From positions 117,490,001 through 117,554,000 of the forward strand of contig OZ024740.1 of NCBI GenBank assembly GCA_964016885.1: a DNA stretch of 64,000 nucleotides, in the 5' to 3' direction. The position numbers were made by a program, and so were the translations under genes. Below the pieces are notes generated by a model. That model ran no database searches. It saw nothing but the letters and a program-made list of their open reading frames with translations, and was not told the origin of the DNA. Origin of the DNA: Eledone cirrhosa. Taxonomy: Eukaryota. This document shows, piece after piece, positions 1,777 through 34,150 of this stretch (its first letter is position 1; every line of letters begins with the position of its first letter).

Positions 1777-2452
1777 CAGAGAGGCCAGTGAAATAGAAAT
1801 TAGAAGACTAAAGCTAAACAGAAATAATGAGTGGAACAACAACAACACCCAAACAAACAACACTGACCTAAGAGAAGTATAAAAAGTAAATAAAATAAAA
1901 TAAAATAAAATAAGATAAATAAATAAATACATACACAAGCACAATAACAACAAGCACATAAACACACACTAGTCACCCAGCAGACACAACACTATACACA
2001 CTAGTCACACAGCACACATAACACTATACACACACGCAAACGCATGCGCAAAGAAGACAAAAGAAAGTAAGATAAACAAACAAGCAAATAAGTAAAAAAA
2101 AATATAGACAGACTGAATAAAAAATGGCGTAGACATACAACACAACAGGAGGAACAAGAATATAACACCACTGACGTAATTATGTAAATTATGTAAACTA
2201 TATATATGTGTTTGTGTCTATATTGTATCTGTATTATTTTTGACCGTCGGTCAGTCAATGGCAACATTGAGGACCGAGTAAGTTAGATCGCAAATATAAA
2301 AGACAGCGAGCAGCGAAAACCAACCATACAGTGAGTGTGTTCTGTTATTAATTCTGGCAATATTACGCAAATATGACCCTCCCCAAGTATAACATTATCT
2401 GTTTCGACACACGATTTCATATAAAAAATCTCGCTAAACTAATTCATCGCCG
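1776..2452 (+). repeat. Inverted pseudo-LTR (3' end) of PLE family A joined to the truncated RT, hammerhead core deleted
   Basis: Reverse complement of 2783-3452. It extends about 55 nt further before (TA)n. CTGACG at 2171-2176 is followed by a deletion of stem II and GAAA relative to the other copies. Confidence 0.75.
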
Positions 2453-2782
2453 CTATATATATATGTATATATATATATATATATATATATATATATATAT
2501 ATATATGTATATATATATATATATGTATATATATATATATATGTATATGTATATATATATATATGTATATATATATATATATGTATATATGTATGTATAT
2601 ATATATGTATATATATATATATATATATATATGTATATATATATATATATATATATATATATGTATGTATATATATATGTATATATATATATATATGTAT
2701 ATATATATATATATATATATGTATATATATATATATATATATATATATATATATATATATATATATATATATATATATATAT

Positions 2783-3499
2783 GTATTGTTATATTTGGGG
2801 AAGGTCATATTTGCGTAATATTGCCAGAATTAATAACAGAACACACTCACTGTTTGGTTGGTTTTCGCTTCTCGCTGTCTTTTATATCTGCGATCTAACT
2901 TACTCAGTCCTCAATGTTGCCATTGACTGACCGGCGGTCAAAAATAATACACATACAATATAGACACAAACACATATATAGTTTACATAATTTACATAAA
3001 TCTTTCGTTGCACATCTGCAACATCGTCAGTGGTGTTATATTCATTGTTCCTCCTGTTGTGTTGTATGTCTACGCCATATTTTATTCAGTCTGTCTATAT
3101 ATTTATTTATTTATTTATTTATTTATTTATTTTATTTATTTGCTTGTTTGTTTATCTGTTTTTATTTTGTCTTCTTTGCGCATGCGTTTGCGTGTGTGTA
3201 TAGTGTTATGTGTGCTGTGTGACTAGTGTGTATAGTGTTGTGTCTGCTGGGTGACTAGTGTGTGTTTATGTGCTTGTTGTTATTGTGCTTGTGTATGTAT
3301 TTATTTATCTTATTTTATTTTATTTTATTTTATTTTATTTACTTATTTATACTTCTCTTAGGTCAGTGTTGTTTGTTTGGGTGTTGTTGTTGTTCCACTC
3401 ATTCTTTCTGTTTAGCTTTGGTCTTCTAATTTCTATTTCACTGGCATCTCTGATTTGCCTATCTGCTGGGTCATTCCTATGTTTAGATATTATTCTAAT
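2783..3499 (-). repeat. PLE family A pseudo-LTR copy flanked by (TA)n
   Basis: Homologous to 1776-2395 (inverted) and nearly identical to 4842-5562. Confidence 0.75.
2994..3033 (-). ncRNA. Minimal type I hammerhead ribozyme motif (PLE family A)
   Basis: Minus strand reads cca CTGACGA t GTTGCA gatg TGCAAC GAAA gatt TA tgt: core boxes, 6-bp stem II, weak stem I. Confidence 0.7.
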
Positions 3500-4841
3500 G
3501 TGTATATATATATATATGTATATATATATATATATATATGTATATATATATATATATATATGTATATATATATATATATATATGTATATATATATATATA
3601 TATGTATATATATATATATATATATATATGTATATATATATATATATATATATATGTGTATATATATATATATATGTGTGTGTATATATATATATATATA
3701 TATATATATATATATATATATATATATGTATATATATATATATATATGTATATATATGTGTATATATATATATATATATGTATATATATATCTATATATA
3801 TATATATATATGTATATATATATCTATATATATATATATATATATATATATATATATATGTATACATATATATATGTATATATATATGTATATATATATA
3901 TATATATGTATATGTATATATATGTGTATATATATGTATATATATATGTATATGTATATATATATATGTATATATATATATACATTTATATATATATATA
4001 TATGTATATGTATATATATATATGTGTATATGTATATATATATATATGTATATATATATATGTATATGTATATATATGTATATATATATATATATGTATA
4101 TATATATATATATATGTATATACATATATATACATATACATATATATATACATATATATATATATACATATACATATATATATATATACATATACATATA
4201 TATATATATATATATATATATATATATATATATATATACATATATATATATATATATATATATATATATATATATATATATATATATATATATGTATAAG
4301 TATATATATATATGTATATATATATATATGTATATATATATGTATATATATATATATGTATATATATATATATATGTATGTATATATATATATATATACA
4401 TGTATATATATATATATGTATATATATATATATGTATGTATATATATATGTATATATATATATGTATATATATATATATGTATATATATATGTATATATA
4501 TATATATATGTATGTATATATATATATATATATATATATATGTATATATATATGTATATATATATATATATATATATATGTATATATGTATGTATATATA
4601 TATATGTATATATATATATGTATGTATATATATATATATATATATATATGTATATATATATATATGTATATATATATATATATATATATATATGTATATA
4701 TGTATATATATATATATGTATGTATATATATATGTATATATATATATATATGTATATATATATATATATATATATATGTATATATATATATATATATATA
4801 TATATATATATATATATATATATATATATATATATATATAT

Positions 4842-30996: not shown

Positions 30997-31423
30997 AACT
31001 GTAGAAGGGCTTCAAGCTGCCCCCTGAATGGTTTCTGCCTTACTAGAAACATAGTTTATGCGTGTGATGTGGTAACTACTGCATCCACTAAAACTTATAT
31101 TGGATCAACTTCTACCTCTTTTAAAACCAGATTCAACTCTCACCAGTGTACATTTAGACATAATAAACTTAAGAATTCTACTTCCTTGGCAGCGCACGTC
31201 CACAATTTAAAAAATGCACGAACACAGTACACCCTCGCTTGGCGGCAAGTTGCTAAATCCCATCCCTATACTCCTCATAATAGAGTATGTAACCTTTGCC
31301 TTATGGAATCCCACTCTATTATATTCGCCAAAATGCTCCCTGCTTAATAGAAAGTCAGAAATATTTTCTTCTTGCCCCCACCAGATATTAAGCTCTTTCT
31401 TTTATTTTAAGCCTATTAGCTAA
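30997..31423 (+). pseudogene. GIY-YIG endonuclease remnant of PLE family C
   Basis: ORF 31069-31347 plus a frameshifted end LLNRKSEIFSSCPH. Confidence 0.85.
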
Positions 31424-34106
31424 CACTTTCAGAATTCTCCAGTTGGGTAATCTAGTGTAATTGTCTCATATTGTTTGTTTTGTCTGTTTGTGTATGAATC
31501 TGTGTGTATATGTATGCCTGCATGGGATTATGGAATTTTGATATCGTGGGGTATATGTGAGTTGGTGTATATGTTGATAAGCACCCTTGTTCGGTACAGT
31601 GGATGTGACCCATCCATACTTGCCCAGCCACCGTGTGTGTGTTGTGCACTGGGGGGTCTATCCCAACGTGTATTGAGTTGATTTGTACCTTTATATACTC
31701 ATGAGTTGTGATGTATTACATCTATGTAAAGTGTGTACTGCCTTATAAGATTTATATTTGGCCAGCCCCTCACCTTTTATTTAAATTACTTTTGTTGACT
31801 CTGAGTAAACCAATGGGCCTGTGCCCATATTGGACGGTGATTTAGCCAGTCACTGTGGGCTGACCTGTGCCATCTCGCCGTGGGCAGTAGTTATGGAGTA
31901 CATGTATGTGTTACCCTCCTACTCTGCGGTTCACAGTTTACATGCTGATTTTGTGGTGTTTTTGCCTGGTGTTGTGTTTTTGACACAGTTGGCCTTCCGT
32001 AGATTGATGCTCTCTGTGTGTATTCTCCCAATAATAACGTCTTGGCCCTGATAACCTTCCGTATTTATTAACGGTTTGTTTATACTTGAATCCGGTGACT
32101 ACACGTGTGAATACTCATATTCTCATGGGGTTTAATTTTAAGTTTGATCGTGATTGCTCTGGTTGATTACTCCTATTGGTTGTTGTTCCTCTGTTGCTGT
32201 GAAACTACATTATCTGTGACCAGTGAAAACACCTGTTGTGGGTTTATGACTTTTGATAGCTGGGTAAGACACTTTGTGCACTATATCCGCATAAATTTTG
32301 GGTGACCGGTGTTATGTGTGTGTGTGTGTGTGTGTGTATGTATGTATGTGTGTATGTATATATATATATATATATATATATATATATATATATATATACT
32401 GTCTCTGGGCTAACCCTACCTGTATTCTTGTGATGCCAGCGACATTACTCAGTGTTGTAATTTTGAGAGGTTATCGGCTCTGAAAGCTATTTACTATGCA
32501 CGTTGTTGAGTGTTAAATTTGCCACTTGTATTTTGTATTTAGTATTTTATATTAAGTGGTATGCATAATAATAACCTGCTTCACCTAACCGTATGGAACC
32601 ATCTGCTTTTGCCTGCTTTTATTCACTGATATGCACCTCAATTGTTTGCCCTTTGATGTTCGCACTGCTATATAAGAATTTGCCTGCAACCTTCCCAGCA
32701 TATGTTCCTGCTTGTGATACATCTTGTCAACCAATGATTTCTGCCTGAGTACTCAACTTTATGAATGCACATCTGCGGATTGAACTTTGAAGTACGAATT
32801 TTTGGGATTGTCTAACCTAGGATGTCTCCATTATATTGTAATAATCCACTCATCTAATGTGGACATCGCATCTGCTTATAAAGGTCTCATTCGAACACTC
32901 TATTGTTGGACTGCTGCTAATTGCAACACCTAAAATGTTCTTGTATTCCTGATATATTCCTTATATCACCATGAATCAATATTAGTGTCACCTTATAATT
33001 TCTAAATTTTCTTAAAACATTATGAGTACTTTTTATTAGTATTTAACAAAATTTTTATTTTTATTTTATTTTATTTTATTTTATTAACTCAATTTACTGA
33101 CATTATTTCCAATATTAGGAAACTAGCACCTATACTACTATTATCATTACATGCCTTCATTATCATCCATATTATCCTTATTACCTTATTTACCCCCAGT
33201 TATTTTTATAAATGTGTATATATATATATCCTTATATATATGTTTCTTTTATATATTTTATATATTTTACGTATATCACTTGTTGCACATAGCTTAATAA
33301 CTTATACCTTTGCCAGTCTCATCTTTATTCACACCTTCCTTTATGGTGTATATTTTACTTTATTTTTTATCTATTTTTTATCTAGTTTTTATCTATTTTT
33401 ATCTCTTAACTTCTTTAAAAAAATTTGTTTTACCATGCATTTTATGCATTTTATACTTTTTATATTCTTATTCCTTTATTGTTTATTTCTCATCCATTAC
33501 GGTGTACTCCTTATGAGTTTCCTACCATGTATGTTCCTTCCGTTATTTGTCCTTATGTTCCCATATTTTTATATGTTTTTATAATTTATTATATTTCTTT
33601 ATATTGTACTCCTCCATGTTATATGTCATCGTTTCTACTGTTATTGCTATATTTTGTCACAGTATGGAGTATGTGCCCATCCGTTTTTGATATGTTATTT
33701 GTATTAGTGTATACTTTCTGTATTGCATATGGGTGCTTGCGTGTAGGTGCATGCGGGTGCTCATGCTTATACGTATAATTTTATGTGAGTGTGTGCATAC
33801 GTAGCTGTGTGTTAACCAATCACATCATTGCTTCCATGATTGCCGGTCATAATATAACCCTACCCAACTGTGAGTGATAACATTTTAGATCCGTATCCTT
33901 ATTAGTATTAGTATATTCCTCATATTCACTATCTTTTGCTTGATTTTATTTTTTATTTTTTATTTTTTATCTTTTATTTTTTATCCTTTATTCCTTATCT
34001 CTTACATGAAAAATACTTTAAATTCCTCCCACCTTATGATATCCCCACATTATATTCTTCTGTTTTGGATTTGTTAATGCTTCTATACTCTGTATCTACT
34101 CTTTAA

Positions 34107-34150
34107 GCTCTGAAGAGTCCCACTTTTAGTGTGGACGAAACATTGTCAGC
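34107..34150 (+). ncRNA. Type I minimal hammerhead ribozyme (PLE family C), GUC cleavage after 34147
   Basis: GCT CTGAAGA GTCCCAC tttta GTGTGGAC GAAAC att GTC AGC. Confidence 0.88.

Follow-up and report, generated by a model that had tools for sequence, protein, structure and literature searches.

The six families of hammerhead-bearing repeats that share a (TA)n field in a 64,000-nucleotide stretch of the Eledone cirrhosa genome (GenBank assembly GCA_964016885.1, contig OZ024740.1, positions 117,490,001 to 117,554,000; hereafter the window) are very probably the 3' ends of five Penelope-like elements (PLEs) that carry an open reading frame (ORF), together with an ORF-less retrozyme. Four of the PLE families (B, C, D and E) are placed in the Hydra clade, family A apparently in an unnamed lineage, and the retrozyme is family R; all six would spread by nicking of (TA)n and reverse transcription from two fixed sites downstream of a predicted hammerhead ribozyme. 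An earlier note, made from the letters of the window, had proposed a community of autonomous PLEs and ORF-less ribozyme parasites sharing one microsatellite target. Its observation largely holds and its interpretation is half right. The community itself is known biology, namely Hydra PLEs with hammerheads in (TA)n accompanied by a retrozyme, and at least two PLE lineages, as assigned from sequence, are involved in it.

Among the six families, the description as ORF-less parasites fits R alone, and A, B, C, D and E are the 3' ends, or pseudo-long terminal repeats (pLTRs), of ORF-bearing PLEs. Family E is the pLTR of the reverse transcriptase-endonuclease (RT-EN) ORF at 266-1776, and full-length ORFs flanked by E pLTRs were found; family D is the pLTR of another Hydra ORF. 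The ORF of E (821 aa) is open in 18 of 84 scored copies and that of B (785 aa) in 8 of 150, all of them 97-100% identical, and full but frameshifted copies represent C and D, with the hammerhead 210-280 nt before the ORF. All four families encode a single ORF with an RT and, at its C terminus, a GIY-YIG endonuclease, intact in B and E and read from the frameshifted copies in C and D. Pfam matched GIY-YIG weakly on C (E 0.028) and returned no family below E 0.09 for three full PLE ORFs. The change from DKG to DKT and the CxCX5C linker were found in the translations of B, D and E and, by eye from DNA, in C; the RWK motif is exact in B, RWT in E and RWR in C and D. CCHH is absent, and a CxxC and a CxH stand beside conserved E and N residues in the translations of B, D and E (C likewise has the CxxC, and its CxH was read by eye from DNA). 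None of the three families measured (B, D and E) has an insertion in fingers domain (IFD), RT motifs A and C being spaced by 94 residues in each. The Hydra assignment of B, C, D and E was made from the motif definitions of Craig et al. (2021; PMC8557442) and by-eye comparison with reference sequences. A DNA search of the genome with B gave 0 candidates, and a protein search found the family. In many B copies, the open frame around the EN measures exactly 179-182 aa, which suggests a subfamily whose upstream stop or junction is fixed.

Family A is of a different kind. Its 1217-aa ORF, open in 7 of 112 copies and arranged in pLTR-ORF-pLTR tandems, encodes a C-terminal GIY-YIG, a CX4CxxC linker, CCHH and an insert of about 70 aa between RT motifs A and B', and is 16-17% identical to B and E. 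The A repeat at 1776 is not part of the adjacent ORF, A and E being separate elements that meet 5' to 5'. Among relatives, the sequence of the insert is conserved. Motifs A and C are 166-173 residues apart in 70 of 71 measured A-type proteins, versus 95-105 in 70 of 75 proteins of a nematode-seeded set, and among 61 measurable representatives the spacing exceeds 150 in 60, while a YxG motif follows the RT in 36 and precedes it in 1. Relatives are numerous: a word-index search returned 76 proteins, the closest named one from Octopus vulgaris (69% identity), and HMMER found 318 clusters at 50% identity (E up to 1e-30), not all of them necessarily A-type. The 71 A-type sequences form one clade with support 1.0 (FastTree, 320 columns, midpoint root), apart from Hydra and from Nematis-, Neptune- and Poseidon-like groups labelled by motif alone, in a tree built without Naiad, Chlamys, Coprina, Athena or telomerase reverse transcriptase (TERT) sequences. 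A model of the A RT (predicted local distance difference test score 94) finds its best structural matches in telomerases (Z 16.8, root-mean-square deviation 3.6, 272 aligned), as is expected of any PLE; a PDB sequence search gave no match. A reading of A as Nematis-like was dropped in view of the insert of about 70 residues, the motif spacing and the separate clade. At locus L318 (2022-5672), one A ORF carries an Asn-rich insert of about 130 aa that is absent from most relatives and is of a kind reported for rotifer Penelopes (PMC3846280).

PLEs with a C-terminal EN (EN+) are described as lacking an IFD, and the IFDs of Naiad and Chlamys as about 20-40 aa long (PMC8557442); eight PLE clades are still listed in a 2026 preprint (bioRxiv 10.64898/2026.07.22.740005). 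As these clades are defined, A appears to fit none of the eight. No description of the A-type clade was found in the literature or by motif searches of the PMC8557442 supplement, and Repbase, Dfam and subscription papers, which lay outside the search, may name it. We consider it an even chance that A is an active octopod member of a ninth, unnamed PLE clade, characterized by a C-terminal GIY-YIG, both zinc fingers, a conserved insert of about 70 residues at the IFD position that would exceed in length that of every other EN+ PLE, (TA)n as its target and a hammerhead of reduced form. If so, A would be the closest mobile analogue of the IFD-bearing RT of TERT, with intact young copies suited to biochemistry; it breaks the published rule that C-terminal EN+ PLEs are without an IFD, has hundreds of relatives, and bears on the kinship of PLE RTs and telomerase.

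R is the only ORF-less family. It consists of tandem units of about 500 nt, as in an array of 10 units with a period of 490-514 nt within its main arm; each unit holds an internal (TA)n tract of variable length (26-140 nt), and the longest ATG frame in one 502-nt unit is 68 aa. A PLE ORF lies near 1 of 109 R hammerheads. An arm at 13920-14077 was considered to start at the cleavage site, a candidate rejected because by eye it extends about 5 nt further and because 0 of 103 5' ends lie at that site. An R-related repeat fragment at 6072-6172, with relatives at loci L186 and L123, has compensated hammerhead stems and an apparent hairpin in place of the (TA)n tract of R. Other hammerhead repeats were encountered in the genome, namely a 310-nt tandem repeat in inverted arrays (L219:1-3100, L232 and L292; 2 of 80 sampled pieces) and arrays of 520-560-nt repeats at L248 and L253.

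All 12 motif sites named in the earlier note were recovered where it had placed them, its numbers being the left edges of the motifs (first bases of the cores are given in Table 1), and the loss of stem II and GAAA from the A repeat at 2171(+) was borne out. From the core to the next TA run on its 3' side, the distance is 82-256 nt, and 210 nt or less for 8 of 11 cores; for the R core, the nearest 3' TA run is the internal tract of the unit and not an insertion junction. A loose core-stem-GAAA pattern occurs 16 times in the 45,699 non-TA bases of the window, versus 3.4 +/- 1.7 (maximum 7) in 200 dinucleotide shuffles. With a descriptor of the full type I fold, relaxed once after its first version gave 0 matches in the window, there are 3 matches against a shuffle mean of 0.01; of the 11 complete motifs, those at 8506, 29901 and 34110 pass. 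The copies at 14462, 15486, 15600 and 28377 carry private mutations that are missing from most genome copies. In a check of families A, C, D, E and R, with 30 copies from the genome for each, the hammerhead was canonical in 29 of the 30 fetched for R and in 22 of 24 among the rows listed for E; distinct copies pass the descriptor in 8 of 10 cases for C, 51 of 70 for D and 30 of 40 for E. In B, the core and stem II are present, and all 27 complete copies listed have a G at position 17 or an extra base; the hammerhead cleavage site follows the rule NUH, and a G17 at the cleavage position renders the ribozyme inactive. In A, 0 of 39 distinct copies pass the descriptor, which calls for a stem I of at least 3 bp closing on NUH. 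Its core and stem II are conserved, with stem II covarying in one diverged copy, and it is best read with a stem III that is short and self-complementary and with only 2 bp in the proximal stem I; a type III reading failed by-eye inspection. A hammerhead or hammerhead-like motif in all six families thus resolves into a canonical minimal type I form in C, D, E and R and a non-canonical one in A and B, even in young copies.

Rfam provides no evidence for the motifs here: no hammerhead stood among the best 150 of 708 matches listed in a scan of the window, which comprised microsatellite-driven miRNA matches, two tRNAs and one bacterial antisense family, and when the genome was searched with RF00163, the model that the earlier note had suggested, 18 of 74 scored candidates matched, all of them outside the window. 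Covariation was analysed in sets gathered by homology, not structure, with formal counts for D and R. In 36 of 70 distinct D copies, chosen for diversity, 94.4% of cells are paired, versus 39-55% in slid controls, and 40 cells show a double change versus 16.4 in shuffles (reached by 0 of 500). In 23 of 25 distinct R copies, a set that leaves out the mutated window copy and one truncated copy, 6 pairs show a double change versus 2.2 in shuffles (0 of 500). The per-family covariation sought is therefore present in D and R, except that the count of double-change pairs in D does not exceed shuffles.

An even sample of the 3.0-Gb genome (80 pieces of 10 kb, 800 kb in all) contains 66 type I hammerheads in 27 pieces. 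The frequency of the motifs is higher than that in shuffled AT-rich DNA both in the window (16 versus 3.4) and in this sample, where each of 10 shuffles gave 0-1. This leaves practically no room for the motifs being chance matches in AT-rich DNA: the loose core pattern does arise about three times per shuffled window, and against this stand the genome sample, the covariation in D and R and the fixed position of the motif within the pLTR. For the hammerheads of C, D, E and R, a chance origin is already refuted. Extrapolated, the sample gives roughly 250,000 type I hammerheads in the genome, a rough figure from clustered counts, versus about 126,000 reported for axolotl; the fetched loci together hold 62 hammerhead sequence signatures. 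The test of adjacency in this sample came out in favor of a common (TA)n niche: 37 of 64 hammerheads have a TA run within 300 nt downstream, versus 12% of random positions, and when hammerheads are grouped into clusters, (TA)n lies no more than 450 nt downstream of 44 of 53, versus a background of 17%. TA-like DNA follows 43 of 62 3' ends for E, 26 of 33 for C, 63 of 79 for D and 29 of 35 for B (numbers that include tandem read-throughs). Such a niche for PLE hammerheads, as the earlier note had proposed, is supported here and was already published for the Hydra clade (PMC8557442). It is not restricted to hammerhead elements, since copies of two families of long interspersed nuclear elements (LINEs) also terminate at TA (4 of 7 copies for one family, 7 of 9 for the other).

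In each family, the 3' ends fall mainly at two discrete positions, separated by about 60-115 nt. Of 84 contiguous tail-out insertions, 83 combine a long with a short end (for R, 10 of 11), an arrangement already published qualitatively. Of 8 Hydra ends, 7 are followed by a CTC...GAG hairpin, which is missing from both ends of R and from the short end of A. Truncated 5' ends fall within 3 nt of the hammerhead cleavage site in 0 of 103 cases. Among 109 5'-to-5' junctions at all loci, 106 join the same family and 3 are mixed, two of these in the window (A with E at 1776, a LINE with D at 8341); mixed junctions fit two arms made from different RNAs, or deletion between neighbors. Base-paired priming on TA-like runs of the template may account for junctions that mostly read AT or TAT, but is unproven, such runs being common in the templates.

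These features are best accommodated by a scheme in which the endonuclease nicks (TA)n and the RT starts at one of two fixed sites just downstream of the hammerhead, both nicked strands being primed, presumably one at each site. In the Hydra families, copying would start about 45-230 nt past the hammerhead, so that even heavily 5'-truncated copies keep it; every fragment would consequently show a hammerhead near a TA junction and seem to have no ORF. A probable role of the hammerhead is to cut read-through or tandem transcripts down to unit length, and its action as a dimer, made plausible in C, D, E and R by a short and self-complementary stem III, may be how it does so. It is probably not needed for insertion, because its form in young A and B copies is non-canonical. 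For R, the likely route is copying in trans by one of the PLE enzymes from multimeric or circular RNA, although no start-site hairpin is common to R and the Hydra families. On the minus strand of locus L231, a frameshifted PLE of Neptune type (by eye) stands beside a full D element, which makes Neptune a further candidate driver for R.

Several points weigh against this scheme. Hammerhead activity is predicted here from DNA sequence, (TA)n targeting from adjacency, and the descriptor is passed by only 12 of 25 distinct R-like copies, besides the 51 of 70 for D and 30 of 40 for E. The four D pairs with a double change do not exceed shuffles (305 of 500), stems I and III of D are nearly invariant, and kinship among copies inflates the cell counts. 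A has a third, middle end in 11 of 61 copies, and R is without the start-site hairpin of the Hydra families. Moreover, the set of long and short pairs is partly biased, E loci L061-090 and D loci L031-047 having been fetched with inversion-junction queries, and ten more tail-out pairs were excluded as non-contiguous; E pairs from other loci are long and short in 12 of 12 cases. It is unlikely that the hammerheads persist as inactive relics or as passengers that play no part in the life cycle. The youth of the non-canonical A and B copies and the lack of 5' ends at the cleavage site would suit such a reading, and the idea that hammerheads parasitize PLEs was raised by Craig et al. (PMC8557442). 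Nevertheless, cores are kept while stems change compensatorily across subfamilies, the full fold is retained in dozens of distinct families, and being dispensable for insertion does not amount to being inactive. Young non-canonical A and B elements, taken with the lack of 5' ends at the cut site, would make the purpose of PLE hammerheads testable with natural on/off pairs.

Two further alternatives concern the nature of the short pieces and the origin of the (TA)n. D and E, besides R, might be ORF-less parasites, their short tail-out pieces forming self-propagating non-autonomous subfamilies, and it is true that E mini-insertion lengths recur (of 30 pairs, 10 measure 191 nt and 5 measure 183 nt), that most D loci are short and that the D1 subfamily yielded the last codons and no intact ORF. 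We hold this to be quite improbable: the recurring lengths stem from loci fetched with a query holding that very junction, 5' ends are scattered, and the E and D sequences are pLTRs of full Hydra ORFs. It is slightly less probable still that the (TA)n beside the ends was made or carried by the elements, through reiterative synthesis by a telomerase-related RT or through internal tracts, and was not a pre-existing target. Internal (TA)n tracts of 26-169 nt in R, B and C, junctions that, as listed, mostly end in AT or TAT, and the kinship of PLE RTs with TERT would speak for such an origin; the flanking tracts have no G/C polarity relative to the element, however, two unrelated PLE lineages and two LINE families adjoin the same field, and Hydra insertions were published as occurring into (TA)n. 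No nested insertion was found within internal TA tracts (0 of 106). Nicking of a pre-existing (TA)n followed by copying from two fixed sites is accordingly preferred as the explanation of the window, whose features are collected in Table 1.

Table 1. Elements of the window and the (TA)n field that hosts them (RT, reverse transcriptase; EN, endonuclease; UTR, untranslated region; strand ".", none assigned)
Feature	Positions	Strand	Core first base (strand)	Description
5'-truncated Hydra PLE of family E	1..1776	-		Part of RT-GIY-YIG ORF (266-1776) and start of 3' UTR; hammerhead pLTR about 1 kb left of the window
Family A 3' arm (EN end, 3' UTR, long end)	1776..2451	+		5' to 5' with E body; hammerhead at 2171 has lost stem II and GAAA
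Family A 3' fragment, short end	2795..3494	-	3030(-)	Atypical hammerhead
Family A 3' fragment	4854..5557	-	5089(-)	99% identical to 2795-3494
Family D (Hydra) pLTR, long end	8342..8689	+	8506(+)	Canonical type I hammerhead; 5' to 5' with inverted LINE 3' piece 7754-8341
Family R retrozyme insertion	13765..14853	+	14462(+)	Inverted short arm 13765-14077 and direct arm with mutated hammerhead and internal (TA)n tracts; long end 14853
Family D tail-out insertion	15303..15693	.	15486(-), 15600(+)	Long end left (core mutated), short end right
Family B (Hydra) tail-out insertion	24103..27402	.	24357(-), 27254(+)	Long end left, short end right; non-canonical hammerheads; EN remnants 25458-25928(-) and 25879-26298(+)
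Family E mini-insertion	28276..28468	+	28377(+)	Inverted long end of about 34 nt and short-end arm; this copy has G at the cleavage position
Family C (Hydra) tail-out insertion	29732..34189	.	29901(-), 34110(+)	Canonical hammerheads; EN remnant 30967-31347(+); internal TA tract within a long 3' UTR
Degenerate (TA)n field with inserts	2452..29731	.		Host tract of the elements, extending left beyond the window; degenerate (TA)n makes up about half

Other features of the window include a 200-base assembly gap at 5872-6071, and the adjoining near-identical A copies at 2795 and 4854 may reflect a local duplication or an assembly artefact. A small palindromic tail-out insertion lies between TA runs at 6220-6408, with relatives at L185, L188 and L198. 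One arm of the B insertion alone holds, at 25113-25232, a repeat resembling short interspersed nuclear elements (SINEs) that is common at 43-63 kb, and the tRNA-like matches at 45961-46042 and 50011-50092, repeated with their flanks several times at 44-52 kb, are probably SINE heads. One LINE (18722-22239(+) and 7754-8341(-)), of the APE-RT kind with a CCCH-type upstream frame, is frameshifted, terminates in short repeats at the TA field and is followed by TA in 4 of 7 copies. The second (34869-39258(+), with 3' pieces at 23097-23602) has an ORF1 with a weak Myb/SANT match and poly-Q and an open APE-RT ORF of 1045 aa; 7 of 9 copies seen end at TA.

Compared with known systems, B, C, D and E agree with the Hydra clade, for which Craig et al. 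(2021; PMC8557442) report insertion into (TA)n and canonical hammerheads, the octopus family Hydra-1_Obim included, in their single RT-GIY-YIG ORF, DKT, CxCX5C, CxxC/CxH and absence of CCHH and IFD, as well as in insertion into (TA)n with an inverted 5'-truncated arm and a tail at one end and, for C, D and E, in the minimal type I hammerhead of the pLTR. They differ in 3' UTRs of 1-3 kb, which make the elements longer than the published <3 kb, in tails of about 85-115 nt where 30-40 were published, in RWT or RWR replacing RWK in C, D and E, and in the non-canonical hammerhead of B, a canonical one being called universal in Hydra by that paper.

Family A does not share the CxCX5C linker, the lack of CCHH or the lack of an IFD by which the Hydra clade is defined. 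Nematis and Neptune (PMC8557442) resemble it in a C-terminal GIY-YIG with a CX2-5CxxC linker and CCHH, in the DK motif and in a pLTR overlapping the start of the ORF, but A has about 70 extra residues between motifs A and B' and an A-C spacing of 166-173 versus 94-105; its motif B' is divergent, its hammerhead is atypical, and it forms a clade of its own. In Naiad, Chlamys and TERT, an insert stands at the same place, the IFD; in Naiad and Chlamys, however, the EN is N-terminal and the insert is shorter, at about 20-40 aa. None of the IFD rows printed in PMC8557442 is similar by eye to the A insert, whose likeness to the TERT IFD is here one of position.

In the in vitro system of the Poseidon element PAc (Frangieh et al., 2024; PMC11167929), the tail has an RT start site on either side, as is proposed here, AT-rich DNA is cleaved on both strands, and hammerhead mutants are without effect on insertion. 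Poseidon belongs to a different clade, the tails here are longer, and that study saw no strand difference in the start site, whereas each insertion here pairs both sites. Finally, R resembles the metazoan non-LTR retrozymes (PMC7229834; bioRxiv 10.64898/2026.07.22.740005) in its ORF-less units, arrayed in tandem and each with a single type I hammerhead, and in its PLE-rich genome, and differs from published units of 150-450 nt in its period of 490-514 nt and its own variable (TA)n tract. Mobilization of retrozymes by PLEs was proposed by Cervera and de la Pena (2020; PMC7229834) and by Li, Clavereau and Pollet (2026; bioRxiv 10.64898/2026.07.22.740005), and the inverted long and short signature of PLEs in 10 of 11 R insertions, not reported in the available passages of either paper, offers sequence evidence for that proposal in an ORF-less animal retrozyme.

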